A stretch of 64,000 bases of DNA from an uncultured Bacillales bacterium (GTDB lineage Bacteria; Bacillota_I; Bacilli_A; RF39; UBA660), in NCBI GenBank assembly GCA_949948745.1, contig CATLHA010000002.1, forward strand, positions 11,195 through 75,194, given 5' to 3'. The position numbers were made by a program, and so were the translations under genes. This document shows positions 1-21,790 of the stretch, piece by piece; within the stretch, counting starts at the first letter, position 1, and each line of letters begins with the position of its first letter. Under the pieces are notes generated by a model. It made no database searches and was not told the origin of the DNA. It saw only the letters and a list, made by a program, of their open reading frames with translations.

Positions 1-3000
1 AACAGAAACCATTTTTTGATAACCGACTTCTGTCATATTATCACTAACAAAATTATCATGCGGATATCGACCACGTTTTTCGGCTAAATGGTTATCTCCA
101 AAATCCCAAATCTGATATTCTTTTTTAAATTCAGAAAAATTTTTACCAACAGATGCATCCACAAAATTTTTTGCTGCATCAATAAAGGAACCTCCATTTT
201 GTAAAATCCAATTTTCGATTCCAACACCGCCTAAGCCACCTTGTGGATTTTCACTATGACCAGATTTATATACTTCTGCTTCTTTTAATACTTGTTTCGC
301 TAAAAGAATATTTGCGATAATATAAGGATATTTTTCTGGACTATTTTTTTGAATATTAGTCAGCCTATCCACTAAAGAAACATCTGTTGAATAGAAAACC
401 TTATCCGTTTTTTCTGCAAAAGTAATGTCAATATCAACAATAGTCTTCTCATCAATTTCAACCTTTTTAAGTCTAAAGTCGCCAGCAGATGTTACCTCTT
501 TTGTTGCCTCCTTTCCTAAATTCCTTAAAATTGTAGTTTTTAAGTTTTCTATTTTAGAAGGATCACTTAATAAGGATTTATCTAATCTCATCAAAAAGTC
601 AAAATCGCCATCACCAGGCTTATTCGTTCCTCTACCAGTAGAACCAGTATCAATTAGTTCTACAAAACCTTCCGTTAAATCACCATCAATTGTTGTTTTA
701 AGTTCTAAACCCAACTCATTTAATGATTGTTGAATCACCTCATTAATTTTCTTCTTCTTTGCCCTCGTAATATAATTACTTTGTTCTATCTCTTCTAACA
801 TCATTTCAGGAACACCCATCATCAAATTATTAGAAAACTTGTAATCATACTCATCAAAATAAGTAAGTCCACTCATCTTTTCTCTTAACTTATCATAATC
901 ATCTGGGGTAAATACTATCTTTCCTTTCATGTCTACAACAGGAATATAAAAACCATTCATACAAATTTCAAGTCCAACAGCAGGATTATAATCATCCATC
1001 AATATATAATTAATTTCACTAGAAGCAAATCCAGTTCTTATTCCATAGTGATCAGGTCCTAAAACTCCTGTATAAAAAGCTTCCAACTTAGACATATCCT
1101 TTTTTTCACTAGAGTTCTCAGTAGAAGTCCTTGTTATATCAAAACGATCATCTCTTTTTAATACAAACCAAATCGGACCATATTTCCTAGAAGCGGTTTC
1201 TTCTATTTTTTCTTGAATTGTTCCTTCTTCTTTAATAATCATAGATACATCTGTATCTAAAGGCGTTGAATCACTTCCTGCACTAGAACCGAGATATTCT
1301 TTAGAAACACTACCATTTTGTAAAATATTTCTTAAATAAGTAATATCTCCTATTCCTTTTACAAAATCTCCTGCTTCAAGTTTCATTTCAGAATTAGAAG
1401 ACATTCTGTTTCTAATATTTGCACTATCTTTTTTTTGACGAACATATTCTTTTGCTTGTTCTAATGTGTCAATTCCTGCAAGTCCACAAAACATTCTAAC
1501 AACTCGATTTGCTAAATTATAATCTAGTGTGCCATCTGGTGAGAATAATTTCTCTAATTTTGAAATATCCTCTATCTCATTTCCTGTAAGCGAAAATTTT
1601 TCTGTATTCATTTTTCCATGCAAAGTATTGTTATAAAGAGTTGCCAAATGCTTACTAAAAGTTGTTAACTCTTCCCTTTGTGATTCATCTAACATATTCA
1701 ATTGAATTTGCCCAGATTTTACATCTTTATATAATTTAGAGCCTATCTCAATATTTTTTAAATAAGAATTGATAGATTTATTATTAGAGCCAAAAGATGC
1801 TTTTAATAAATCGGAAAATATAATTGTTTTTCTTCCCATCATAGAAGAATTTTGAAGAACAGGAGACATCATAGGTGCTGCAAAATCAAATCCTTCAAGA
1901 TTAGGATGAAGTATTTCAAAACAAGAATACACCTTACCAACAATCGGAATATTATTTTTAATAAATACATCTTCAATTTTATTCAAACTTTCTATAGGAT
2001 CATGCGAATTTAATATCTGCGTTGCTAATTCCTGTCGGAATGTAAAAATTTCACTAGAATTTGAAGAAGATAACCTAGATAGCACAGTAGAAATATAGGA
2101 AAGTTTATCTATATCAATAGAATTTTGAAATTTTTTTACATATTCTCTAAATGTTTCTTGAAATAGAGAGTCTGAAATTTTTGAATAAGCAGAAACAACT
2201 TTTAGCCTACTCATATTTGCTTTCTTCGAATCCTCGCAATTACTAAATAAGGGAATAATCCAAGAAAAGTTTCCAGGTAATCCACAAACAACATTTGTAT
2301 TACCAAATAAATCTAGTAAAGTAGAATCTTCAAAATCACTAGTTGTAAATTCTCTATTATAAAATTTTTGGCGAATTTCTAAAGGCAAAGTAGAATCTAA
2401 AAATAATGTTGGATTTGCATTTTTAAAGCGCTCTGGAGCATCTTCATTATATTTCATTTTTCCATCAATAATCCCCTTGAGCAAATTAGAGTCCATCTCA
2501 TTCAGTATATCTTCTTTTGTAAAATCAGACTTTAGTCTAAATTCACGCAATTGATTCCATCTAAAAATAGAATCAAGATAATCTCCATATTCTAATATGA
2601 AGTCAAAACTAGTATCTGAGTCAAATACTTGTTTAATCGCATTCACTAAGTTAATAGAATAATATCTTTTATTATCATCTTCAATAAAAACTGGCATATA
2701 CTTATAAATTAATTCTAAATCAACATCTTTTAAATATCTTCGATAAATTGGATTTTTCAAAATCTTTGATGAACGGACTGTTCTATTATAAAAAGCGTCT
2801 TGTAATTCTTTAGGAGCATTAGAATCTAAAAACAAGTGAGGACAATCTACAAGAAGACTTTGTGGAACAAATTTAGGATAAATTTTTTCTTTTTCAATCA
2901 TGATTTTTCTAAACAAAGCATTCATTTTTTTTCTAATTTGATCAATATCATCATCTTTGAAAATTTTAAATTCAACTTCGTAACTACTTGTGCTTAATAA

Positions 3001-4536
3001 ATTATTTCCAAAAATAATATCATATACATCCCTATAATCAATAATAAAATCCATAAGATGATGAAAATCCATTTTACGTCCAAGAAACTCATAAAGGTTT
3101 TCATACCCCAATAGGTTACCACTACCCTCTACTGGAATTTGTCTTGGTTTTAAACAGGAACTTAGATTTTTTCCTTTTAGGTATTCTAAATATTCTCTAT
3201 GTTCAGCTAAAAACTTAGGAGTAATAGATTTTTTATAAAATTTATCCTGTAATTCTAATGGTGCTTCTTCGGAAATAAATAGTGTACTATTTCTTAGTCG
3301 AAATTCACCCGTAATATTTCTGTAATCAATAGCTTTATTCATATAGTCAAAATTGCTTGGTCCATAGACTATCATTCTTCTCATAGCCTCATAGAATTCT
3401 TCCTTTGTATATCCTCTTTCTATATAATTTCCATTTTCATCATAAGTTTTCTTTGTATGAATTGATTTTTGTGGATCAGGTTCATTTCCAGAATAATGCA
3501 AATACAGCGTATTCATCATTCCTAACATCAAACAATTATTACTAGTAAAAAAGTGCCCGCATTCATTATCAAAATCAACAATATTTTTAAGTCCATAAAA
3601 AGATAGAAAGGCTATCACATTATAGTCTTTAAATCTTTTAAAAGGAATTGGAGAATTCCATATATAATCAGGTGGAAGAGTTTCTAGTTCTTTAGATATA
3701 CGATTTATATCCTTCTCATAACTCGGATAAATTTTTTTCAAATAATCCTGAATAGAAGAATATTGGAACAACAATCTATATTCTTCTTGATTTAAGATAA
3801 TAGACTGACTATTCTCTTCTATTGTTCTTGATAAAATTTGATCTGTAACTTTTTTCATACATTCTGTTACCTCAGATGGATTCTTACAATTACTTACCTC
3901 CGAAATAACTTGATATAGATTAGAATGTTTAAAAATCAATATAGCGATATCAGAAAAATTATCCATGAAATTTTTAACTTGCTCACTTGTAATATGAGAA
4001 ACATTATTTCTATCGTTCTTTAAACAATAACCTAAGTCTTTTTCTTTATATAAATCCCACTGATCAATAAAATCTTTTAGGGATGTGTTTCCACGATTAA
4101 AATTACGTGCAATATATTGATATGGAAGATTTTTTTCCTCCTCCTCACTAAATAATCGATTAGAATATACTTTTTTCATTCCATCAGGATACTTAGATGG
4201 TTCTATTTGATCTTTTATAATTTCATATAAAGAGAGATTGATATCATCTGTAGATGGATCTACCTCATATTTTAACAATTCTATAAAATGAGATGATTGT
4301 AGATATAAATCGCCAGTAAATAATGTTATATCTAAATTTTTTATCTTTTCAATCCCAAACTTTTCAACAATTTGTCTATCTGATTCAAATAAACAAGTAG
4401 TTGGAATTTTATCTATCAAGTGATATTCTAACATTTCTTTTAAAGAAAGTGTACAATTGTAAATATTAGATAATATATACTTTGGTACTTTTAACCTTTT
4501 TCCAAAAAGTTGTCCCTTTTTATATTTGTAATTCAT
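1..4536 (-). CDS. Giant multidomain protein, N-terminal >1511 aa only (C-terminus lies beyond the window edge); Pol-beta-type nucleotidyltransferase domain (GlnE/GlnD/NTP_transf_2-like) near the in-window C-terminal end; ~150-aa internal repeats
   Basis: ATG at 4534-4536 (minus) follows an AGGAGA SD. Hand translation of many 60-nt blocks (4536-4261, 1080-961, 480-1) stays open in one frame through position 1. The ORF track shows no ORF of 60 aa or more in any frame across 733-4627, as expected for an unterminated ORF. The sequence encoded at ~420-640 is LIDTGSTGRGTNKPGDGDFDFLMRL...IVDIDITF, a G[GS]-x9-11-DxD plus third-Asp NTase signature, followed by GGLGGVGIENWILQNGG. Confidence 0.6.
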   Translation of the reverse strand, partial: MNYKYKKGQLFGKRLKVPKYILSNIYNCTLSLKEMLEYHLIDKIPTTCLFESDRQIVEKFGIEKIKNLDITLFTGDLYLQSSHFIELLKYEVDPSTDDINLSLYEIIKDQIEPSKYPDGMKKVYSNRLFSEEEEKNLPYQYIARNFNRGNTSLKDFIDQWDLYKEKDLGYCLKNDRNNVSHITSEQVKNFMDNFSDIAILIFKHSNLYQVISEVSNCKNPSEVTECMKKVTDQILSRTIEENSQSIILNQEEYRLLFQYSSIQDYLKKIYPSYEKDINRISKELETLPPDYIWNSPIPFKRFKDYNVIAFLSFYGLKNIVDFDNECGHFFTSNNCLMLGMMNTLYLHYSGNEPDPQKSIHTKKTYDENGNYIERGYTKEEFYEAMRRMIVYGPSNFDYMNKAIDYRNITGEFRLRNSTLFISEEAPLELQDKFYKKSITPKFLAEHREYLEYLKGKNLSSCLKPRQIPVEGSGNLLGYENLYEFLGRKMDFHHLMDFIIDYRDVYDIIFGNNLLSTSSYEVEFKIFKDDDIDQIRKKMNALFRKIMIEKEKIYPKFVPQSLLVDCPHLFLDSNAPKELQDAFYNRTVRSSKILKNPIYRRYLKDVDLELIYKYMPVFIEDDNKRYYSINLVNAIKQVFDSDTSFDFILEYGDYLDSIFRWNQLREFRLKSDFTKEDILNEMDSNLLKGIIDGKMKYNEDAPERFKNANPTLFLDSTLPLEIRQKFYNREFTTSDFEDSTLLDLFGNTNVVCGLPGNFSWIIPLFSNCEDSKKANMSRLKVVSAYSKISDSLFQETFREYVKKFQNSIDIDKLSYISTVLSRLSSSNSSEIFTFRQELATQILNSHDPIESLNKIEDVFIKNNIPIVGKVYSCFEILHPNLEGFDFAAPMMSPVLQNSSMMGRKTIIFSDLLKASFGSNNKSINSYLKNIEIGSKLYKDVKSGQIQLNMLDESQREELTTFSKHLATLYNNTLHGKMNTEKFSLTGNEIEDISKLEKLFSPDGTLDYNLANRVVRMFCGLAGIDTLEQAKEYVRQKKDSANIRNRMSSNSEMKLEAGDFVKGIGDITYLRNILQNGSVSKEYLGSSAGSDSTPLDTDVSMIIKEEGTIQEKIEETASRKYGPIWFVLKRDDRFDITRTSTENSSEKKDMSKLEAFYTGVLGPDHYGIRTGFASSEINYILMDDYNPAVGLEICMNGFYIPVVDMKGKIVFTPDDYDKLREKMSGLTYFDEYDYKFSNNLMMGVPEMMLEEIEQSNYITRAKKKKINEVIQQSLNELGLELKTTIDGDLTEGFVELIDTGSTGRGTNKPGDGDFDFLMRLDKSLLSDPSKIENLKTTILRNLGKEATKEVTSAGDFRLKKVEIDEKTIVDIDITFAEKTDKVFYSTDVSLVDRLTNIQKNSPEKYPYIIANILLAKQVLKEAEVYKSGHSENPQGGLGGVGIENWILQNGGSFIDAAKNFVDASVGKNFSEFKKEYQIWDFGDNHLAEKRGRYPHDNFVSDNMTEVGYQKMVSV

Positions 4537-4626
4537 AAGCATCTCCTATGATTACATTATATCACATACATTTTACATTTTTCAAAAAAAGAAAAAGAAA
4601 GACCATATAAGCCTTTCAAGATCATT

Positions 4627-5115
4627 TTACTCATCAATTTTATTTTTTAAAATAATACTTTCTAAAGAAGAATATACTTGATCTATTTCTTCTTTTTTTC
4701 CTTCAATTGCGACTACATTCATGCGAGGAGAGATATATTTATCAATTTCAAACACAACATTTTTCTTTTTAAAAACAATACGTTTTCTTTTAAATATCTT
4801 AATATTTGTTAAATCTAGTATTTGAATTAAAGAATCAACAAATTTTTTATTTTCTTTTGTAATAACTAAATCTTCTGATTCTCTAGAAATTTTTAATGGA
4901 CTACTATTTAAATTATCATCTTTAAAATTTAAAATACTAACTTTCTTATCATTATAAGTATTCGTAGTAATTCTAGCCATAACTTTTCCACCATTTTTAT
5001 ATAAGGTACGAACTTGTTTATATTCTTCTACTATTTTATAATGATTCTCTTCACAATATTTAATAAAATCATTTACACTTTTTACTTTAAAACTATATTC
5101 ATATTCTTCATTCAT
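4627..5115 (-). CDS. CYTH-like (CyaB/thiamine-triphosphatase-type triphosphate tunnel) domain protein, tentative
   Basis: 162 aa. N-terminal EEYEYSFKV and C-terminal KRKRIVFKKKNVVFEIDKY...NVVAIEGK resemble the CYTH beta-strand motifs (ExExK ... hDxhxG..hEhE). The start overlaps the upstream stop (TAATG at 5113-5117). Confidence 0.4.
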   Translation of the reverse strand: MNEEYEYSFKVKSVNDFIKYCEENHYKIVEEYKQVRTLYKNGGKVMARITTNTYNDKKVSILNFKDDNLNSSPLKISRESEDLVITKENKKFVDSLIQILDLTNIKIFKRKRIVFKKKNVVFEIDKYISPRMNVVAIEGKKEEIDQVYSSLESIILKNKIDE

Positions 5116-6503
5116 TATTTTTTCCTCTTCATAAGTACTGGATTTGGATAATTAAATCTAGTAAAAACTTGATATTCTGGATATCCTACTAAAAAATGCA
5201 TACTTGCTTCACATGCATCATCTGTAGAATGCACATAATTTGTAAGTAAATTAGGATCCCATAACATTTTTTCACCATTAAACCATTCTACATAATGACC
5301 TTTAATTTTTTGTCCATAATTCTTTCGAATCCAATGCTTTCTTTCATTTAATAGATCTTGATCATCGTTTAATAAAATAACTTTATTAGGGCCTTTCATC
5401 TGATAGTTATATTTCATACCATGTGGATGAAAGAAACTCATAGGATATAAACCAAGTTCTGATTTTTCCCCTATATTACAATCATACTCTGTAATTAATC
5501 TTCTTTGATCTGGAATCATAGATAAAGTAACAGATTTAGAAATTCCTAATAAATAAGAAGAAGATTTAATAATAATAACGTTATATCCAAATTCATAGAA
5601 TAACCGTGGCGTAATATGATTATATAAAATTGACATATCCCTTAAATCTAAATATTTATCTTTCTTCTCTTCTCCAATAATCTTTTGTGCCTCAATTTGT
5701 TGTGCTTTATAATCTTTACTATTTTCTAGTAAGAATTCTAAATTAGATTTCCAACGTTCAATTACTGGTTCCTTATGAATATCATTTAACTGTTCTATAT
5801 TTTCAAACTCAGTAATTTTATCAAAAAATTCATGTTTTAAAATTTCTTTCAAATGAGAAAAATTACTATCCATAACACATTCGTAATATCGATAAAATAA
5901 TCCATCTAAATAATCAACATTCTGAAGTGACTTTTTAAAGATATTATAATTTTCAATCTGAGAATAGTTATATTGTCCATGAGAAATATAATACATATCA
6001 TTTCGAATAAGAGAAATTAATTCTTCTAAAGTAGAATCCACTACTGTATAAGACTGATAGATATCTTGATGTTCTAAATCAATAACTTTTCCATAAGTAT
6101 AACCAACATCTGGAGTAGTATCTACCATAAATGTTTTATTATTAGGAGCTTCTACAATAACAACAAAATGATATAAAGAACTATTTTTTAAATCAATATT
6201 CTTTCTACTGTTTACCAAAGCCAAATGACTCTTTGGAAAAAGGTTTAAATCATGAATATAATCTAAAAACACTTTAGAAGAAGTAAAATCATCTCCCATT
6301 AATATATCTCTATCATTATTTGGATTGGGATACTTCATATAAATCATGCTTTGCCTAACAAGATCCGCTAGTACTTGTAGTTGCTCTTTCACATATAATT
6401 TAGAGAATTCACGCACCATTGGAGTTTCAGAAAATGTTTCCGTAGAATCAGAAATTGGAACTAAGTCCTCTAATCTTGGTAAGTATTTATTCATAATCAT
6501 CAC
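5115..6503 (-). CDS. hypothetical protein (462 aa), no recognisable motif
   Basis: Long ORF translationally coupled on both sides (overlaps at 5115 and 6487-6503). Confidence 0.6.
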   Translation of the reverse strand: MMIMNKYLPRLEDLVPISDSTETFSETPMVREFSKLYVKEQLQVLADLVRQSMIYMKYPNPNNDRDILMGDDFTSSKVFLDYIHDLNLFPKSHLALVNSRKNIDLKNSSLYHFVVIVEAPNNKTFMVDTTPDVGYTYGKVIDLEHQDIYQSYTVVDSTLEELISLIRNDMYYISHGQYNYSQIENYNIFKKSLQNVDYLDGLFYRYYECVMDSNFSHLKEILKHEFFDKITEFENIEQLNDIHKEPVIERWKSNLEFLLENSKDYKAQQIEAQKIIGEEKKDKYLDLRDMSILYNHITPRLFYEFGYNVIIIKSSSYLLGISKSVTLSMIPDQRRLITEYDCNIGEKSELGLYPMSFFHPHGMKYNYQMKGPNKVILLNDDQDLLNERKHWIRKNYGQKIKGHYVEWFNGEKMLWDPNLLTNYVHSTDDACEASMHFLVGYPEYQVFTRFNYPNPVLMKRKK

Positions 6504-7785
6504 CTAAAATCTTCCTGAAAAAATAATCAAAATTTTGAATTAAGTTATAATCATTTTCTAATCTTTTTTGCGCATTTTTATTAAATCGAATCATATCTTC
6601 TTCATTAAAATGTTTTAAAATTTTCTGAGTACTACTTTCTATATCATTTAAATCAACTAAAATACCATCTTCTAAATCCTCAATTTGTTCATGAAGACCA
6701 CCACGATCATTCGCAACAATTAAAACATTATCTTTCTTAAAACGACGTATTTCATTAATAATTAAACCAAAGATTTCCCTTTCAGATGGAATTAACATAA
6801 TCATGGGTTTAGAAAAGTATTTAACAATATACTGAGGTAAGAAAAATGGTGGATCTACATATAGCAAAGATGATGTTTCCTCAGCTTTCTTTTTATAATC
6901 TTCAATGATTGGTTGTCCATCAAAATATTGCTGTGTAATAATGATTGGCTTCACTTTTAAACTATTTCCTAAAACCATTGCTTGCTCTAGGTTTTTATAT
7001 TTTTCAGCACGACCAAATGCCATTAAAATAGAATCGTATTGATTTAAATCTTCTAATATATTTTTCATTGTATCTGTTTCATCATAAGAATTTTCTCTTG
7101 ATAGAATTTCACCATTAATAATATTAATATTTTTTTCTTCTTTTAATTGATACTCTTTAATTAAATGATCATGAATATATACACCTGTAGAAATTAAATA
7201 GGTATTAGAATCTTGATTAATATAATCAACAGCAGCTTGCTCCCAATCAATATGCTCCTTATGTAATTGATCCTCTTCTGAAATTGAAGAATCTACATTA
7301 TAAATTTTTCCAGTAGAATGTGGTATCCAAGCTTTAATACTATTTTTCTCATCTTTAATCATAGAAAGTAAGCATGCAAAAGGAGTGTCGTTACATAAGG
7401 TAACTACATAATCATACTGATTAAAATCAATCTCATTGATAATTCTTGCGACATTTTGACTAGCTAAAGTCCAATTTTTCACATTTCCAAAACTAGTCTC
7501 TCCATTTGTTCCATTAGGAACAATATATAAAGAGGAATTTTCTAACTCCTTATGAAAATCCCAAAGTTCTTTGTTATAACCCATACTATCTTCATTAAAT
7601 TCTAAAGTAAATAAATTTAAATGATAATCAATATTTTTTTCTTTTAGTAAAATTGTTAATACTTCAATATATCTTCTAACAATGGTTCCTACTCCTGCAT
7701 AATGACTAATAATACCATCATGGCCACACAAATTAATTAATAATTTCATTGATAACTTCCTCCATATTATTTTTTCTATATTCAA
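6487..7785 (-). CDS. GT-B fold glycosyltransferase (GT4-like)
   Basis: The C-terminal PSEREIFGLIINEI...VANDRGGLHEQIEDLEDGILVD matches the GT4 E-x7-E / GG..E..DG..G.LV signature. Confidence 0.6.
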   Translation of the reverse strand: MNIEKIIWRKLSMKLLINLCGHDGIISHYAGVGTIVRRYIEVLTILLKEKNIDYHLNLFTLEFNEDSMGYNKELWDFHKELENSSLYIVPNGTNGETSFGNVKNWTLASQNVARIINEIDFNQYDYVVTLCNDTPFACLLSMIKDEKNSIKAWIPHSTGKIYNVDSSISEEDQLHKEHIDWEQAAVDYINQDSNTYLISTGVYIHDHLIKEYQLKEEKNINIINGEILSRENSYDETDTMKNILEDLNQYDSILMAFGRAEKYKNLEQAMVLGNSLKVKPIIITQQYFDGQPIIEDYKKKAEETSSLLYVDPPFFLPQYIVKYFSKPMIMLIPSEREIFGLIINEIRRFKKDNVLIVANDRGGLHEQIEDLEDGILVDLNDIESSTQKILKHFNEEDMIRFNKNAQKRLENDYNLIQNFDYFFRKILGDDYE

Positions 7786-8266
7786 TTACTTTAAAATTTT
7801 TCGCATACTTCTTCAAATTAAATAATGTTAAAGCATGTGTTAATTTTAAATTATCAATAGAACCAAATGGATTTTTATCATCCTCCAAAGATGGATGGTA
7901 TTCCTCTGGATGATATAAATAATATGTATATGTAGTATCGTCTTTATAAATATCACTAAATTTTTGAAACCATTTTTCGACATAAGAGGCATCATAACTG
8001 TTATCAATCAAATGATTTACTTGATTATAAACTAAAGTGCTGATAGGTCCACGATCAACAATTGTTAAATCTTTCTTACGATTAAAAACCTTCATTTCAT
8101 CATTTTTTAAGAAAACTTCCTCAGGATCAATAAATGGATTATCAATGTCTGGATTAATTAATTCATCGACAATTTCTACACCATCAAGACCCATTTCTTT
8201 AATTTTCGTTACCATTGTCGTCTTCCCAACACCAGGCAATCCTTCAATAAAAATCATTTTCTTCAT
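7733..8266 (-). CDS. P-loop nucleoside/nucleotide kinase-like protein (dNK/TMPK-like fold)
   Basis: Walker A IFIEGLPGVGKTT and a DRGPIST (DRS-like) motif. The ORF-track start (TTG at 8278) lies inside the SD; ATG AAG AAA ATG (MKKMIFIEG) at ~8266 is the more plausible start. Confidence 0.45.
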   Translation of the reverse strand: MKKMIFIEGLPGVGKTTMVTKIKEMGLDGVEIVDELINPDIDNPFIDPEEVFLKNDEMKVFNRKKDLTIVDRGPISTLVYNQVNHLIDNSYDASYVEKWFQKFSDIYKDDTTYTYYLYHPEEYHPSLEDDKNPFGSIDNLKLTHALTLFNLKKYAKNFKVIEYRKNNMEEVINEIIN

Positions 8267-8334
8267 TACTACCACCAACCAAACTAAATTTTATTTATTA
8301 GATTACCACAAACAAGAAGAAAAGTATAGTTTTT

Positions 8335-9234
8335 TTACTTAGAAAGTACCTCTTGAATCCTTTTTAAAATTTGCTCACTTGCCCTATCATAACATTGTTT
8401 GGTATCCCCAGAAATATCTTTACTATAAATAATATTTTCATAATCTAGAATCTCTTCTAAATCTGAATCAATCGTTGCCTTATCACAAATATAATAATTG
8501 TCCTTATTTTGTAACCACTCTTTTAAAGAGGCAAATTCGTAACACTTTCCAATCGAAGTATTGACAATAATTTTTCCATTACCAAATTGCTTTAATCGAC
8601 TTCCACCAATCAAACAAACATCTCGGTTTACATTGATAGATAAAATATCAACAGTAGATAATAGTTCTTCCAACTCTAAATATGTAATATTTAATTGTTC
8701 TTCTAAATTTTTCTTTCTTGTTCTACTATAATAATAAATATCAGCATCAAAAAAAGAAAATAAAGAAGCTACTTTACTGCCTAGATTTCCAAGACCTAAA
8801 ATTCCAACTTTTAAATTGGATAAGTCAAGAATTTCATTTTTCCATCTCTTTCCAGAAAAACCATGAAGTAACTGAATCACAGAAGAAATTGTAAACTCTA
8901 AAACACCGTGATCCCCATGTCCAGATAAATAAGAATATGTAATATTTTTATCTTCTAAAGCATCGATATCCACTTTACAAAATTCCTTTCCATAATAAGA
9001 ACAACAAAGCATAACATGTTTTAAATTTCTACAAGAATAAATTACTTCCTTAGAAATGACAGTTCTAGAAGAAACCAAAATGCAATCTGCATCTTGAATT
9101 CTTTCTAATATCTTTTTTTGATCTAAAGTAGGAACATCAAAAGAAACCAATTCCTGGCAATAATTCTTTAATTCTTTCTTGGATGGTTCATTTAATAAAA
9201 CTGGTTCTACAATAACTATTTTTTTAAATTTCAT
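8335..9234 (-). CDS. D-isomer-specific 2-hydroxyacid dehydrogenase family protein (divergent)
   Basis: NAD-binding GILGLGNLGSKVA...D; the usual NTARG catalytic Arg is replaced (NTSIG). Confidence 0.5.
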   Translation of the reverse strand: MKFKKIVIVEPVLLNEPSKKELKNYCQELVSFDVPTLDQKKILERIQDADCILVSSRTVISKEVIYSCRNLKHVMLCCSYYGKEFCKVDIDALEDKNITYSYLSGHGDHGVLEFTISSVIQLLHGFSGKRWKNEILDLSNLKVGILGLGNLGSKVASLFSFFDADIYYYSRTRKKNLEEQLNITYLELEELLSTVDILSINVNRDVCLIGGSRLKQFGNGKIIVNTSIGKCYEFASLKEWLQNKDNYYICDKATIDSDLEEILDYENIIYSKDISGDTKQCYDRASEQILKRIQEVLSK

Positions 9235-9249
9235 CTTTCTTCTCCCACT

Positions 9250-10728
9250 TTACTTATTTCCATATTTTTCTTCAAAATATCTAGCTATTGGTTCAATCGT
9301 TATGTCAAAACCACATAGCTTTTCTATAATTTCATTAGAAGTATAGGCACCACCATTTTGATGAATATTCTTTATTAAATAATCTGTAATTTCTTGAACA
9401 CGCCCTTCTTTTAAAAGAAAATCGATATCTCCTAAATCTCTTTTTATCGCATCTAAGAACATTCCATCATAAATAGATCCTAATAAATAGGAAGGAAAAT
9501 ATCCAAAATCTCCTTCAGACCAATGTACATCCTGCATAAATCCATCAATATCATTTTCTACATCTACATTTAAATATTCCTTCATTTTCTTTTTCCATAC
9601 AGAAGGAATTTCTTCTACAGTAAGATTTCCATTAAACAAATCTCGTTCTATTTCATATCTTAAAATAATATGCATGCAATAAGTAAGTTCATCTGCTTCT
9701 ACTCGAATAAGTCCAGGGTTAGGACAATTTAAAAACTTTATAAACTGATCTAAATCGATAGTTAAATGTAACATTTCCTTTACCTTATCATAAATAGGAA
9801 TCCAAAAATTTTTATTTCTTCCTAAAATATTTTCATAAAATCTAGATTGACTCTCATGTAAAGCATATAAATGATTTAATGGAGAATTCTCGTATTTCGT
9901 TAAACTTTCCTTCATATTTTGTTCAAAGATTCCATGTCCACCTTCATGAATTACAGTAGTAACAAAATCAATTGGATCCTCGGTATGTCTAAAAGTAATT
10001 CGAATATCATTAGGCCCTAATTTTTCAGTAAAACCATGAGGATAAATTCCAAGAGCTCCTCGATTCATATCAAAACCAATGTATTTTAACAGGTACTCCG
10101 CACACTCTATTAATTCAGAATCACGACAAGTAACCTTTGGCACATTAGAAAAAACAGTAGTTTTTGGAATTAAAGGTAAAATCCTCTTTTTTAATTCTTC
10201 AAATAAAGGATCAATTTGCTTACTGGTAACACCCATCTCGTAACTATCTAGCATAACATCATATAAATTACTAGTCTCACTATCTATATAACGATAACAT
10301 TTCTTAGTCATTTCAACAATTTGTTTAAAATAAGGAAAGAATAAAGAAGAGTCATTCTTCTCTTTTGCTTCTCTCCAAGCAATATTTGATTTATTTTTAA
10401 GTTCTGCATATTCAATATAAAAATCAGAAGGAATTTTTTTATCTTCATTATATCTTTTTAATAAATCCAAGATATATCTTTGTTCAGGAACCTCTATTTC
10501 TTGAAATTCTATAGATTCCACTATTTCTTGAAGTAATATCCCATATTTAGTAGATGTCTTCATTTGAAATAATTCATTTTCATATTTGGTAATTAAATGA
10601 ATTAAATCTTCTTCGGATTTTTTAGGTGCAGATATTCTTAACTCCCATTCTAAAAGATTTATTGTATATTGAAGACTTAATATTTCTTGTTCATATTTTA
10701 ATAACTGTTCTATTTTTTTCATCAGCAA
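9250..10728 (-). CDS. carboxypeptidase Taq (M32) family metallopeptidase
   Basis: HEGGHGIFEQ (HExxH) plus the downstream HESQSRFYEN motif, both typical of M32; 492 aa. Confidence 0.8.
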   Translation of the reverse strand: MLMKKIEQLLKYEQEILSLQYTINLLEWELRISAPKKSEEDLIHLITKYENELFQMKTSTKYGILLQEIVESIEFQEIEVPEQRYILDLLKRYNEDKKIPSDFYIEYAELKNKSNIAWREAKEKNDSSLFFPYFKQIVEMTKKCYRYIDSETSNLYDVMLDSYEMGVTSKQIDPLFEELKKRILPLIPKTTVFSNVPKVTCRDSELIECAEYLLKYIGFDMNRGALGIYPHGFTEKLGPNDIRITFRHTEDPIDFVTTVIHEGGHGIFEQNMKESLTKYENSPLNHLYALHESQSRFYENILGRNKNFWIPIYDKVKEMLHLTIDLDQFIKFLNCPNPGLIRVEADELTYCMHIILRYEIERDLFNGNLTVEEIPSVWKKKMKEYLNVDVENDIDGFMQDVHWSEGDFGYFPSYLLGSIYDGMFLDAIKRDLGDIDFLLKEGRVQEITDYLIKNIHQNGGAYTSNEIIEKLCGFDITIEPIARYFEEKYGNK

Positions 10729-10742
10729 AATCCCCTCCTAAA

Positions 10743-11342
10743 TTATAATTTTTCGTTATTGGAAATAATTTTTCCATCTCCATTTTCTATCGCAATCACT
10801 GGATATTTACTTGTCTTCATATATTCTAAAATATGTTCTTTTCTCTTATTAGCATGAGGAATAATAATAGAATCAATAAATCCTAATCCACTAAAGTCAG
10901 TTAACCCAACAATATTTTCATCAAAACCAAGCGCAGCATCAATACTTTTAGCGATTACTTCACTTCCAGCACTAGAGCCAATATAGACAATTCCCTCATT
11001 AATTACGTCTTTTAAAATCTGATCAAAATGATATTCTCTAATTTTAGACATTAAATAAAAAGTATTACCACCCATCATATAGATAACATCAAAATGATGA
11101 ACATCAATTTCTTGTCCAATTTTATATTCTACAATATGTTCCTTTAATATTCCTAAATCTAATATTGTTTGATATTCTTCATCTACCCAAGATAAGTCAG
11201 AATCTCGTTCTCCATCAACCGCTGTTGTAATATAAAGCATATGAATATCCTTCGGTTCTTTATCAAATAACTTTAAAGTATCTTTCTTTAGTTTTTCGTT
11301 AATAACACCACATGCAGTTAAAACTAATTTCATATAACTCAC
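10743..11342 (-). CDS. peptidase E-like (S51 family) dipeptidase
   Basis: GGNTFYL and GSSAGS motifs. Confidence 0.65.
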   Translation of the reverse strand: MSYMKLVLTACGVINEKLKKDTLKLFDKEPKDIHMLYITTAVDGERDSDLSWVDEEYQTILDLGILKEHIVEYKIGQEIDVHHFDVIYMMGGNTFYLMSKIREYHFDQILKDVINEGIVYIGSSAGSEVIAKSIDAALGFDENIVGLTDFSGLGFIDSIIIPHANKRKEHILEYMKTSKYPVIAIENGDGKIISNNEKL

Positions 11343-11896: not shown

Positions 11897-12316
11897 CTAA
11901 ACTTTATCAAAATAAGTAATTCTTCTTTCATTTACATCATCTTCAATCGCATCTCTTAAAAGCTTACGTACCTTAGAAGCATCAGTTAAATGACGTAAAT
12001 ATATTTTCATCCCAGAACGTTCACTACTACTATGAGTATCTACTGTAACACTAATTGTTCCAACATGAATCATTCTCTCAATTAAAGTTTCTGTTAAATC
12101 AGGATCTTTCAAAGTATATAGTTCAAAAGAATTGCTCTTTCGCTTAAAAAATCCAGTTGTCACAATTAATTCATCCTTTGTTATTTGATACTTTGTAAAA
12201 TTTAAATGAATTAAAGTCAAAAATCTCTCCCAAAGACCATTAGGAACTCCTTCCCATAAAATTTCAAAATCTATTTCATCTAGCTTTTCTTTTTTCATAA
12301 ATACACCTCTATTCAT
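11897..12316 (-). CDS. bacterial PH (bPH_2/YdbT-like) domain protein, tentative
   Basis: ~130 aa with TKDELIVTTGFFKRKSNSFELYTLKD...IHVGTISV, the bPH_2 pattern. Confidence 0.35.
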   Translation of the reverse strand: MNRGVFMKKEKLDEIDFEILWEGVPNGLWERFLTLIHLNFTKYQITKDELIVTTGFFKRKSNSFELYTLKDPDLTETLIERMIHVGTISVTVDTHSSSERSGMKIYLRHLTDASKVRKLLRDAIEDDVNERRITYFDKV

Positions 12317-18118: not shown

Positions 18119-20485
18119 TTATTTATCACGAACTACTGCTGGTAATTTATTTTCAACAGATTCGATAATTTGATTAAATATCTTCATTACTTCTTCATCA
18201 TTTAATGTACGTGTAGGATCTTGGAATGTTAAAGAGAATGCGATAGATTTTTCATCATTACCAACATTTTCACCTTCATATACATCGAATACTTGGGTAG
18301 AAGTTAATAACTTTCCACCTGCTTTTTTAATTACAGAACGAATCTCATCAGCAGTAATATTTTTCTTAACAACAAAGGCAACATCTTTTAATACACTTGG
18401 GTATTTTGTGATTTCTTTATATTGCATTTTCTTTGTACGGAAGCTAAGTAATGTTTCTAGGTTAATTTCCATTACAAAAATATTGTCTTTTATAATAGAA
18501 GGATGTACTTTTCCAATAACACCGATTTCAACATTATTTAAAATAATCTTCGCACTTTGTCCAGGATGAAGTTCATCAACTTCACTAGTTGGAACAATAC
18601 TGTAACGGTTTTGGTATCCTAAAGATTCTAATATTTCTTCTAAGATTCCCTTAATTACATAAAAGTCTACTACTTCTTTATGAAGTCCAACATTATAAAT
18701 TCCTGTCATAAGTACAGCCAAACGCTCTTCTTCATGATAAATTCCATCTTTTTTATAGAATCCTTTTCCAATTTCATAAATAGAGATATCTTTATAATTT
18801 CTTGCCTTATTGTATTTGAATACAGATAATAAAGACGGAATTAGACTATATCTTAAAGTGTTTCTATCTTCACTCATTGGATCTAGTACTTTTACCTTTT
18901 CAACATCCTTAACAGTTGTAAATTTTAGTCCATCAGACTCAGGAGTAAGCGCATAACTTAACGTTTCATTTAATCCTAAATCAGCTAGTTTATTTCTAAT
19001 ATAACGTTTCGTTCTATCTACAGTGCCAGGCATAACAGGAAGCATCATCGCTTTTCCTTCAATTTTATCAATACCATAAATTCTACCAACTTCTTCGATA
19101 ATATCTTCTGGAATTGAAATATCAGTTCTTCTAGTTGGAACAGTAATAGTTAAAACAGAATCTTTTTCTACTACTTCAAATTGTAAACGTTTTAAAATAT
19201 CAAGTATTTCTTCTTTTGTAATGGAAATACCAAGAACTTTATTAATCTTATCAATAGAAACAACTACTTCTTTTTCTTTAATTTCCATATTTTTATATTC
19301 CACCATGCCAGATACAATTTTGGCATCTGCATACTTTTCTAATAAGTGACAACTTCTCATCATTGCCATATAAGTTCTTTTTGGATCAAGACCTTTTTCA
19401 AAACGATTACTTGCTTCACTTCTTAATACTTTCTTACTTGTCTTACGAATGCATGTTGGATGGAAGATTGCGGATTCGATAATAATATTTTTTGTATCTT
19501 CTTCGATCTCAGTAGTTAAACCACCCATAACACCAGCAAGTCCAACTGCTTCTTTATCAGTCGCAATCACAATATCAGAAGAAGATAATACTCTTTCTTG
19601 ACTATCTAGTGTTGTTAATTTTTCATCGTCTTTCGCCATACGAACGATTAATTTATCTCCTAATCGATCGGCATCATAATAATGAAGAGGCTGCCCTGTT
19701 TCTAACATAACATAGTTTGAAATATCAACTACATTATTAATTGGACGAATTCCAGATGCCATTAAGCGATTTTTAATAAATTCAGGACTTTCTTTAATTG
19801 TCACATCTACTACTTTTTTAGCTAAGAATAAAGGACAATTTTCAGTTTGTATATCAAGAATAAATTTACCATCAATAGATTCTTTTTCTTCTTTAAATGA
19901 TAAATCAATATCTCCTACTTCTTTTCCATAAATAGCCCCAATTTCATAAGCCATTCCTAAAATACTTAAAAGGTCTCCTCTATTAGAAGTTAATTCAAAG
20001 TCGATAACTTCATCATCAAGTCCCATAAATTGAATAGCATCCTCTCCAACAGGAGCATCACTAGGTAATTCATGAATTCCATTGATATCTTTTTCAGTTA
20101 AGAATTTATGTTCTAAACCAAGTTCAGAAATAGCGCAAAGCATTCCATTAGATTCTTGACCACGAATAGTTCCTTTTTTAATAACACCACCAGGAAGGGT
20201 TGTACCATCTGTTGCGACGATTACTTTAATTCCTGTACGAACATTAGGAGCACCACATACAATTTGTAGTACTTCACTACCAATATTTACTTTACATACA
20301 TGAAGATGATCACTATCTGGATGATCGATACATTCTACTACTTCACCAATAATTAATTTAGAAGTTGGAATTAGCTTTTCACAAGAGTCGTATTCATTTC
20401 CAACGTTAGTCATATCATCAGCTAAAGTCTTAGTATCAACATCGATTGATACATAATCACTAACAAATTTTCTACTTAATTTCAT
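18119..20485 (-). CDS. pheT: phenylalanine--tRNA ligase beta subunit
   Basis: tRNA-binding, B3/4 and B5 domain architecture, ~790 aa; start at MKLSRKF after SD AAAGGATGAGG. Confidence 0.9.
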   Translation of the reverse strand: MKLSRKFVSDYVSIDVDTKTLADDMTNVGNEYDSCEKLIPTSKLIIGEVVECIDHPDSDHLHVCKVNIGSEVLQIVCGAPNVRTGIKVIVATDGTTLPGGVIKKGTIRGQESNGMLCAISELGLEHKFLTEKDINGIHELPSDAPVGEDAIQFMGLDDEVIDFELTSNRGDLLSILGMAYEIGAIYGKEVGDIDLSFKEEKESIDGKFILDIQTENCPLFLAKKVVDVTIKESPEFIKNRLMASGIRPINNVVDISNYVMLETGQPLHYYDADRLGDKLIVRMAKDDEKLTTLDSQERVLSSSDIVIATDKEAVGLAGVMGGLTTEIEEDTKNIIIESAIFHPTCIRKTSKKVLRSEASNRFEKGLDPKRTYMAMMRSCHLLEKYADAKIVSGMVEYKNMEIKEKEVVVSIDKINKVLGISITKEEILDILKRLQFEVVEKDSVLTITVPTRRTDISIPEDIIEEVGRIYGIDKIEGKAMMLPVMPGTVDRTKRYIRNKLADLGLNETLSYALTPESDGLKFTTVKDVEKVKVLDPMSEDRNTLRYSLIPSLLSVFKYNKARNYKDISIYEIGKGFYKKDGIYHEEERLAVLMTGIYNVGLHKEVVDFYVIKGILEEILESLGYQNRYSIVPTSEVDELHPGQSAKIILNNVEIGVIGKVHPSIIKDNIFVMEINLETLLSFRTKKMQYKEITKYPSVLKDVAFVVKKNITADEIRSVIKKAGGKLLTSTQVFDVYEGENVGNDEKSIAFSLTFQDPTRTLNDEEVMKIFNQIIESVENKLPAVVRDK

Positions 20486-21530
20486 TTTCCTCATCCTTTC
20501 TATCAAATTGTTCTAAGAAACGGATATCATTTGTATATAAATAACGAATATCAGGAATTTCATAACGGAACATAGCTAATCTATCTAAACCAGTTCCAAA
20601 AGCAAATCCTGTCCAAACTTTAGGATCATATCCACCCATTTCTAATACATTAGGATGAACCATACCTGCACCTAATAATTCAATCCATCCTGTTTGTTTA
20701 CATAAAGGACATCCCTTACCACCACATTTAAAGCATGTAACATCAACTTCAACACTTGGCTCTGTAAATGGGAAGAAACTTGGACGAAAACGAACATGAG
20801 TATTTTCACCTAACATCTTTTTCGCAAATAACTCTAAAGTTCCTTTTAGATCTGCTAAAGAAACATCTTTATCAACAACCAATCCTTCTACTTGTCCAAA
20901 TTGATGAGAATGAGTAGCATCATCATCCCTACGATATACTTTACCAGGACAAATCATACGGATTGCTGTTTTATCTTTATTTGCTTGCATAGTTCTTGCT
21001 TGAACACTAGAAGTTTGTGTACGAAGTAAGTATTCTGGATCAATATAGAAGGTATCTTGTGCATCTCTTGCTGGATGTCCTAAAGGTACATTTAATCTTT
21101 GGAAACAATTTTCATCTGTTTCAAGTTCTGGTCCATCTACTACATCATATCCCATAGAAACAAAGAAATCTTCAACATCTTCAATAATTCTTTGGAATGG
21201 ATGACGAGAACCTCTTTTTAACTTTTTACTAGGTAAACTTAAGTCAATTCTTTCTGACTCTAATTTTTCATTTAATTCTTTTATCTTTAGTTCTTCTTCC
21301 AATTCAGAAATTTTTGTAGTTACTTCTACTTTGATTTCATTAGAAACACGTCCTACTTCTTTCTTTTCTTCGATAGAAAGTTCTTTCATATTACTAGTAA
21401 GTCCTGTAACAAGACCTTTTTTTCCGAAATATTTTACTTTTAATTCTTGACAGTCTTTACTAGATGTAACATTCTTAATATCTTCTTCTAAAGACTCTCT
21501 AATTATTTTTACTTTTTCTGTTATATTCAT
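20472..21530 (-). CDS. pheS: phenylalanine--tRNA ligase alpha subunit
   Basis: Class II aaRS motifs. The start is placed at MNITEK (ATG 21530, SD AAAGGA) because the track's 5' extension would run through the T-box terminator. Confidence 0.9.
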   Translation of the reverse strand: MNITEKVKIIRESLEEDIKNVTSSKDCQELKVKYFGKKGLVTGLTSNMKELSIEEKKEVGRVSNEIKVEVTTKISELEEELKIKELNEKLESERIDLSLPSKKLKRGSRHPFQRIIEDVEDFFVSMGYDVVDGPELETDENCFQRLNVPLGHPARDAQDTFYIDPEYLLRTQTSSVQARTMQANKDKTAIRMICPGKVYRRDDDATHSHQFGQVEGLVVDKDVSLADLKGTLELFAKKMLGENTHVRFRPSFFPFTEPSVEVDVTCFKCGGKGCPLCKQTGWIELLGAGMVHPNVLEMGGYDPKVWTGFAFGTGLDRLAMFRYEIPDIRYLYTNDIRFLEQFDRKDEENEIK

Positions 21531-21555
21531 AAAAATCATCCTTTCTAACATAGTA

Positions 21556-21790
21556 GTTTGAGCATGAAAAAACGACAACTCACACCTAAGGGCGAATTGT
21601 CGCGGTACCACCTTATTTATAGATTTCTCTATATCTCTAATTTCTTAACGCGAAATATACGCTTAGCTTTTTACTAAGAACTCCAAAGGTGAATTCTTAA
21701 GAACTATCTTCCTTGTTTTCACCAACCACAAGGTCTCTAATAAGATATTTTTCTTAGTACTACTCCTTTATCCAAGTCAAACTCAATATG
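21556..21790 (-). promoter_or_regulatory. T-box riboswitch leader with Phe (UUC) specifier, upstream of pheST
   Basis: Minus strand shows AGAGA box, specifier context GAAUUCACC, T-box sequence AAGGUGGUACCGCG, then terminator CGACAA...UUGUCG plus U6 (21567-21602). Confidence 0.85.

Follow-up and report, generated by a model that had tools for sequence, protein, structure and literature searches.

The first 8,278 nucleotides of a 64,000-nucleotide stretch of DNA from an uncultured Bacillales bacterium (GenBank assembly GCA_949948745.1, contig CATLHA010000002.1, positions 11,195 to 75,194 of the forward strand; hereafter the window) raise the question of whether five consecutive minus-strand genes form a single system, and of what they do. 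ORF calling found all five open reading frames (ORFs) at positions 1-8278, as reported in a first-pass annotation, which was made from the sequence alone and took them for one translationally coupled operon. Our analysis divides them. With a probability of about 0.5, the region holds two independent units: a mobile four-gene operon for a nucleotide-type pathway, hereafter the cassette, and a stand-alone gene for a giant nucleotidyltransferase (NTase). Gene starts were set at ATG codons with a Shine-Dalgarno sequence and by agreement with the N-termini of homologues, which gave the following layout.

7736..8266, minus strand: gene 1, P-loop kinase resembling the thymidylate-kinase/dNK type, 177 amino acids (aa); ATG with a GGTGG Shine-Dalgarno sequence, N-terminus shared by 14 homologues.
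6490..7749, minus strand: gene 2, GT4 glycosyltransferase (GT-B, retaining type), 420 aa; GGAGGA Shine-Dalgarno sequence 9 nucleotides upstream of the ATG.
5118..6494, minus strand: gene 3, three-domain protein, 459 aa.
4630..5115, minus strand: gene 4, divergent CYTH / triphosphate-tunnel metalloenzyme (TTM), 162 aa.
4597..4617, minus strand: terminator-like hairpin and T-run, 10 nucleotides past the CYTH stop codon.
4556..4585, minus strand: promoter-like site for the giant gene (TTGAAA-18-TATAAT, extended -10 TG), score 11/12.
1..4536, minus strand: giant gene for a cytoplasmic protein, 1512 of 1536 aa inside the window, separate from the cassette.

A Shine-Dalgarno sequence precedes each of the four cassette genes, and neighbouring genes overlap: the kinase and GT4 genes by 17 nucleotides (7733-7749), the GT4 and 459-aa genes by 8 nucleotides (6487-6494, ATGAATAA) and the 459-aa and CYTH genes by 1 nucleotide, within the stop/start sequence TAATG at 5113-5117. 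This last junction had been given correctly in the first-pass annotation; its two other overlaps, of 17 and 53 nucleotides, came from using the longest ORFs with GTG or TTG starts, and with ATG starts they shorten to 8 and 17 nucleotides. Between the CYTH stop codon at 4627-4629 and the giant ATG at 4536 lie 90 nucleotides. The hairpin in this gap (4617-4597), one of only two terminator-like sites in the interval 4300-9500, is likely the 3' end of the cassette transcript. It is followed by the TTGAAA-18-TATAAT site (4585-4556), which at 11/12 is the best sigma-70-like match within the same interval, and by an AGGAGA Shine-Dalgarno sequence 7 nucleotides ahead of the giant ATG.

Homologues of the 459-aa protein (31 matches in the homologue search) were traced to metagenome contigs and GTDB representative genomes, and the 22 loci obtained besides the window, L014-L035, were compared by tblastn and ORF clustering. 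The order kinase-GT4-459-aa-CYTH, tightly packed, was complete in 19 of the 22 (L014-L029, L031, L032 and L035), with protein identities of 31-77%. Since the four-gene order recurs in 19 complete copies, the overlaps in the window are not a matter of chance. No gene family beyond the four was common to the cassette loci, and the giant gene was absent from the examined flanks of all 22. The coupled unit is therefore one of four genes and not of five: a 90-nucleotide gap with a hairpin and a promoter-like site sets the giant gene apart, and synteny covers the other four only.

Around this conserved core, the neighbours of the cassette differ from locus to locus. Four divergent cassettes carry an inserted GT2 glycosyltransferase gene, placed behind the 459-aa gene, whose end it overlaps; L035 has a Listeria-Bacteroides-repeat (Flg_new) surface protein within the cassette, and in L017 an NAD-dependent epimerase/dehydratase and an acyltransferase are encoded downstream. 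The three incomplete loci are remnants (L030:4401-5651, L033:4518-5347 and L034:6001-6746), in which an intact CYTH gene, with 64-68% identity at the protein level, is accompanied only by 3' fragments of the upstream genes; the 459-aa gene is reduced to such fragments in all three, and a GT4 fragment is also left in L030. Large serine recombinases with Resolvase and Recombinase domains are encoded beside the cassette at L019:370-1968, L024:8039-9628 and L030:2465-3892 and, in three copies, in L033, while the L014 cassette is flanked by a DDE transposase and an IS605 TnpB (3656-5383 and 10061-11212), with PycTM and Schlafen-like genes close by. The GC content was 24-34% across all loci. The labels of the records are uncultured Bacilli, Tenericutes, Candidatus Faecisoma and Candidatus Coprosoma, Candidatus Faecisoma being placed at NCBI in Mycoplasmatota incertae sedis, and we equate these hosts with the gut lineage of the RF39 type. 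A patchy distribution, decay, neighbourhoods that change and recombinases alongside together mark the cassette as self-contained, horizontally mobile accessory cargo of metagenome-assembled genomes (MAGs) of uncultured low-GC gut Bacilli/Mycoplasmatota. Its mobility and patchiness are compatible with a role in conflict or defence, or with a niche-specific one.

Other observations were made at these loci. A prophage or plasmid origin of the window copy was rejected, as neither the cassette nor the giant protein was found in phage or plasmid collections or on IMG/VR viral contigs. A second, shorter paralogue of the 459-aa protein (358 aa, no Pfam match) is encoded about 3 kb upstream of the L031 cassette, at L031:1988-3061. 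About 5 kb downstream of the GT2-containing cassettes of L015 and L016, at L015:14322-15629 and L016:11666-12973, lies a gene for a NadR-like protein with HTH_3, AAA_28 and weak CYTH matches; it is a second kinase-CYTH pairing, unrelated to the cassette.

The giant gene behaves differently and is probably a lineage-wide gene of its own. Full-length homologues of its product are numerous, with 57-68% identity over about 1540 residues and at least 380 matches in the search. In five loci from four other species (L011/L012, L013, L036 and L037), the gene stands by itself and its neighbours are unrelated; long intergenic stretches often border it. It lies beside a CYTH gene only in the window species and its closest relative, L041 (68% identity; CYTH gene about 100 nucleotides upstream). 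The adjacency of the two genes is thus local and recent, as it is otherwise seen only in L041 and the gene is stand-alone in the four other species.

The domain content of the cassette proteins was then taken gene by gene. The kinase has the Walker A motif GLPGVGKTT and the motif DRGPISTLVYNQ. Walker A, E35 and D71-R72-G are invariant in its homologues, and DRGPxST(L/F)xYNQ is conserved. Residues 1-93 matched PHROG 761 'thymidylate kinase' at 1.7e-10; the scores against Pfam Thymidylate_kin (18.4 versus 27) and TIGR00041 (20.5 versus 83) were below the cut-offs, and no arginine-rich lid was recognised. The GT4 protein matched Pfam Glycos_transf_1 at 5.7e-8, with 32.9 bits against a gathering cut-off of 26.4, and the two glutamates of its E-x7-E motif, E325 and E333, are invariant across 15 homologues. 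Its family profile found only GT4 enzymes in PDB (BshA, PglA-type and others), mostly through the C-terminal donor-binding domain; the best match, BshA 5d00 at 1.3e-5, covered the C-terminal domain only. All GT4 equivalogs in NCBIfam were far below cut-off, BshA with 37.6 versus 273.7 bits and MshA with 17 versus 462.5 bits.

For the CYTH protein, single-sequence searches of Pfam, NCBIfam, PADLOC, PHROG and PDB gave no match, the window protein alone being below Pfam detection. A first profile of 15 sequences, the members of which had no Pfam CYTH match, was borderline (2dc4, E 0.073), and a further word-indexed homologue search returned close relatives only, without Pfam labels. An exhaustive profile search of 1.84 billion representative proteins showed the family to be small, with 229 representatives at E<=1e-3. 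With the resulting family profile of 46 sequences (A7), all seven PDB matches were CYTH/TTM proteins, at 5.4e-7 to 0.017; among them are 1yem (5.4e-7), 2dc4 (8.5e-5), the Yersinia class IV adenylyl cyclase (3e-4), Saci_0718 (1.8e-3), 2aca and 2een. Pfam CYTH (PF01928) was weakly matched by 8 of the 46 members, at best with 7e-4. Residues E4, E6, R36, R48, K65, E79, R112, D125 and E138 are near-invariant in the family, and R110 and E123 are also conserved. The 162-aa protein shares with CYTH/TTM enzymes (CyaB-type, Saci_0718, 1yem, 2dc4) a profile homology over nearly its whole length and a single domain of about 160 aa, and its conserved acidic and basic residues would be those of the tunnel. 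Unlike them, it has Ser in place of the Lys of ExExK; it may be a hydrolase or a cyclase. CYTH enzymes are triphosphatases, thiamine triphosphatases or class IV cyclases, and cyclase assignments among them have been wrong in the past (PMC10249747). One distant member of the family, P0417 (L038), is encoded by a stand-alone gene.

With these results the kinase-like, GT4 and CYTH-like calls of the first-pass annotation hold, the first on Walker A (its quoted GLPGVGKTT and DRGPIS are both present), DRGPxST and PHROG 761, the second on Glycos_transf_1 above cut-off with E-x7-E kept, and the third on the 46-sequence profile and its seven CYTH/TTM matches. What did not survive is its description of the third gene product as a protein without any motif. 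The 459-aa protein had no sequence match in Pfam, NCBIfam, PADLOC, PHROG or PDB, nor a PDB match by its family profile. The AlphaFold2 model built with 22 homologues (predicted local distance difference test, pLDDT, 91.2; predicted template modelling score, pTM, 0.91) showed an N-terminal domain with a predicted arylamine N-acetyltransferase (NAT)/transglutaminase-like fold, then a helical linker and, fused to them, a C-terminal domain with a predicted nucleoside diphosphate kinase (NDK) fold. Foldseek searches of the model against viral structures recovered both folds independently.

The NDK-like domain aligned with its closest structures, Mimivirus NDK (2b8p) and S. aureus NDK (3q83), over 111 residues at 2.2 A. 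It shares with NDK the ferredoxin-like fold, and its Lys after strand 1 and its His within N-x-x-H-x-[ST]-D at a strand/helix junction would be the counterparts of those of NDK. The His, invariant H422, lies in N419-x-V-H-S-T-D-D between strand 421-423 and helix 427-434, and the Lys is invariant K310, which follows strand 305-309. It differs from NDK in its low identity (11-17%), without sequence-profile similarity, and in being part of a 459-aa fusion. Neither the window nor the loci yielded a canonical ndk gene. In the NAT-like domain, an invariant T71 occupies the position of the catalytic Cys, and H109 and D125 are kept, so that only two residues of the Cys-His-Asp triad are present. Arylamine N-acetyltransferases and transglutaminase-like papain-fold enzymes use the catalytic Cys; its replacement by Thr71 excludes classical thioester chemistry, and the domain may bind substrate or work by a different chemistry.

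Same-species contigs extended the giant protein, of which the window lacks the last 24 residues, to its full 1536 aa, and its C-terminal end, which the first-pass annotation had to leave open, proved to be the NTase domain itself. The signature that it had quoted, GSTGRGTNKPGDGDFDFL ... DIDITF, is present; in the family it reads G1298-S ... D1311-x-D1313 ... D1368-x-D1370 and is invariant. The C-terminus combines the pattern hG[GS] x9-13 Dh[DE]h and a third carboxylate, on the strand that comes next, with the NTase fold of the Pol-beta superfamily. In the AlphaFold2 model of residues 313-1512, which is of moderate quality (mean pLDDT 67.6; about 50-80 in the NTase domain), the predicted C-terminal fold is that of a Pol-beta nucleotidyltransferase resembling terminal transferases and CD-NTases. 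The remaining modelled residues, about 900, gave no convincing fold match. The Pol-beta part of the earlier call thus stands; its GlnE/GlnD type does not, since no such match was obtained by sequence or by fold. The protein had no sequence match in Pfam, NCBIfam, PADLOC, PHROG or PDB, and its family profile none in PDB at E<=1. It differs from TUTase/Cid1/CutA, CD-NTases/DncV and OAS by about 1250 upstream residues without detectable relatives, including three repeats of about 150 aa with the motif LF(L/I)D/S..aP.E(L/I)(Q/R)..FY at residues 420, 569 and 712, and it is matched by no Pfam NTase model. The C-terminal portion of about 1100 residues is the most conserved part. The NTase would presumably nucleotidylylate or tail a substrate bound by the repeat region.

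Some neighbours of the giant gene deserve mention. Immunity-family genes lie within about 2 kb downstream of it in two loci, Imm26 at L001:16939-17856 (window species, beyond the window itself) and SUKH at L013:15599-16048, and no cognate toxin for either was recognised. A reading of the giant protein as a polymorphic toxin was rejected, as its C-terminus is the most conserved part, it has no secretion signal or transmembrane segment, and its neighbours vary. His_Phos_1 genes adjoin the giant gene at L001:15295-15834, L041:4897-5457 and L011:8199-8753; a conserved linkage was rejected here as well, the L001 and L011 proteins being only 29% identical, and the association is probably a coincidence. 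In L011 (1-9880), the gene is preceded by an NAD-related cluster with CTP_transf_like, CinA, two NrtR-like NUDIX regulators, NAD kinase and an AAA_28 NadR-like kinase.

From the results above on gene architecture, folds and families, synteny and mobility, we infer for the cassette a set of substrates, an order of steps and a role. A nucleotide-like pathway is the most economical proposal, because three of the four cassette enzymes handle phosphoanhydrides and the fourth uses a sugar bound to a nucleoside diphosphate (NDP-sugar). The P-loop kinase would convert a nucleotide-like or phosphorylated small molecule from the monophosphate to the diphosphate, and the NDK-like domain would carry the diphosphate to the triphosphate through phospho-H422. 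GT4 would attach a sugar from an NDP-sugar, with GT2 supplying a second one in the divergent versions, and the CYTH enzyme would hydrolyse or cyclise the resulting triphosphate. Their product would be an accessory metabolite. The four enzymes are predicted to be soluble and cytoplasmic, and ORF clustering of the loci found no gene for a transporter, flippase or polymerase conserved with the cassette.

Several points weigh against this proposal. Its order of steps is a construction from domain chemistry, and the promoter and terminator calls are consensus matches only. K310 and H422 may be the equivalents of the nucleotide-binding Lys and the phospho-His of NDK, by motif and secondary-structure position only. 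The domain falls outside the Pfam and NCBIfam NDK families, the PDB profile search returned no NDK, and hhalign against a genuine NDK sequence, validated against PDB at 4e-71, gave a probability of 0.3. The NAT-like domain is without a nucleophilic Cys. In the CYTH family, the E4-x-E6 part of ExExK is invariant, the Lys being replaced by an invariant Ser8, with K10 two residues further on. The cassette is absent from viral contigs, and no system model of PADLOC-DB 2.0 matched it, the matches of its proteins being at the P-loop level only (E of at least 1.5e-4), together with one weak glycosyltransferase match. Moreover, P-loop kinases of the same fold also phosphorylate non-nucleotide small molecules, and small acids or inositol phosphate are the substrates of GT4 relatives such as BshA and MshA. 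Because such kinases and GT4 relatives use non-nucleotide substrates, a glycoside-phosphate pathway fits about as well.

In such a pathway, of the mycothiol, bacillithiol, glucosylglycerate or sucrose-phosphate type, a phosphorylated acceptor is glycosylated and then dephosphorylated: the kinase would phosphorylate the acceptor, GT4 alone or together with GT2 would add the sugar, the CYTH protein would serve as phosphohydrolase, and acylation or binding of the product would fall to the NAT-like domain. This agrees with BshA, MshA and sucrose-phosphate-synthase-type enzymes being the closest to the GT4 C-terminal domain in NCBIfam and PDB, with the solubility of all the proteins and the lack of a flippase or polymerase in the cassette, and with the epimerase/dehydratase and acyltransferase genes downstream of the L017 cassette. 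However, the GT4 similarity is limited to the generic donor-binding domain and far below the equivalog cut-offs (for BshA, the 37.6 versus 273.7 bits given above), the closest family of the kinase is thymidylate kinase, and the pathway offers no role for the NDK-fold domain. Furthermore, CYTH enzymes are specific for triphosphates and are not monoester phosphatases (PMC10249747). We consider this explanation doubtful.

Somewhat less survives of the idea that the cassette helps in envelope or protein glycosylation, with GT4, and GT2 where present, decorating a teichoic-acid-like polymer, a glycolipid or a surface protein and the other three proteins supplying or recycling the donor nucleotide. 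The GT2 insertion in four cassettes and the Flg_new surface protein within the L035 cassette would fit, as would the range of the GT4 family, which includes lipid-linked and wall-polymer glycosyltransferases (PglA/H/J matches); an NDK-like enzyme could, in addition, rephosphorylate the NDP released by glycosyltransferases. Against it, the cassette has no conserved association with a membrane protein, flippase, polymerase or sugar-nucleotide synthase, transmembrane segments were predicted in none of the five proteins of the region and thus in 0 of 4 cassette proteins, most neighbourhoods are unrelated to envelope loci, and the cassette is decayed or missing in close relatives. This makes an envelope function improbable.

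That all five genes form one obligately co-expressed system, with the giant NTase as effector or core enzyme served by the four small proteins, is highly improbable and largely refuted by synteny: the genes are adjacent on one strand, adjacent also in L041, and all five products have a nucleotide-handling chemistry, but a terminator-like hairpin and a near-consensus promoter occupy the gap, 19 complete cassettes lack the giant gene in their examined flanks, five giant-gene loci in four other species lack the cassette, and the giant family looks far wider than the 459-aa family (at least 380 versus 31 matches, in searches that are not strictly comparable).

Returning to the four-gene nucleotide-type pathway, its nearest parallels are among phage pathways and viperin-associated kinases. 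In phage pathways for hypermodified nucleotides of the T4 type, a dNMP kinase and an NDP kinase are followed by a DNA glucosyltransferase, and nucleotide kinases accompany prokaryotic viperins. The cassette would share with these systems a P-loop enzyme of the nucleoside monophosphate (NMP) kinase type, an NDK step and a glycosyltransferase, and the serial phosphorylation of an unusual nucleotide to the triphosphate. It differs from them in having no base-modifying enzyme (hydroxymethylase or radical-SAM viperin), in its location in bacterial chromosomes, viral contigs and phage records having yielded no copy, in the fusion of the NDK fold to a NAT-like domain and in the presence of CYTH. The resemblance to phage pathways and viperin kinases is a functional analogy and not membership.

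Each domain of the cassette belongs to a known superfamily, and the cassette is probably an accessory operon of nucleotide/sugar-modifying enzymes. Among the curated families and systems of the libraries searched, none corresponds to the 459-aa fusion, to the NAT-like domain with Thr for Cys, to the divergent CYTH subfamily or to the combination of the four genes, and the literature searched yielded no paper that describes them. The first-pass annotation had likewise not recognised the set as a named pathway, and neither Pfam, NCBIfam, PADLOC and PHROGs nor the literature searched gave a pathway match, nor was the set assigned to a characterised housekeeping pathway.

A more specific version of the proposal is that the cassette is a mobile system in which an NMP-kinase/NDK-like phosphorelay, GT4, and CYTH as cyclase or processing step make a nucleotide triphosphate that is glycosylated, or its cyclic derivative. 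In uncultured gut Bacilli this product would serve as an agent or signal, either anti-phage or inter-bacterial, and the NAT-like domain with Thr for Cys would add a new chemistry or substrate capture. We regard this version as quite unlikely. Should the product be a modified nucleotide or nucleotide-linked glycoside, the cassette would represent a new small-molecule pathway, possibly with a defence or signalling chemistry, and would give a first functional context to an NDK fold fused to a Thr-for-Cys NAT-like domain and to the divergent CYTH subfamily. Its hosts belong to an abundant, uncultured and genome-reduced gut lineage, a large share of whose genes have no assigned function. The giant protein, conserved across many MAGs and without sequence relatives of known function, is a well-defined structural and biochemical target. 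Against the importance of the cassette, uncharacterised enzyme cassettes are common in MAGs, and an unusual mechanism is not yet evident here.

Two features of the remainder of the window were also recorded. A T-box leader (118 bits) at 21585-21783 on the minus strand lies directly upstream of pheS and pheT (20475-21611 and 18122-20506, minus strand), which form an ordinary T-box-regulated phenylalanyl-tRNA synthetase operon. Between positions 12000 and 64000, 36 of the 37 ORFs of at least 150 aa are on the minus strand, and the GC skew is uniformly negative across the window; this strand bias and skew place the window within one replichore with very strong co-orientation.

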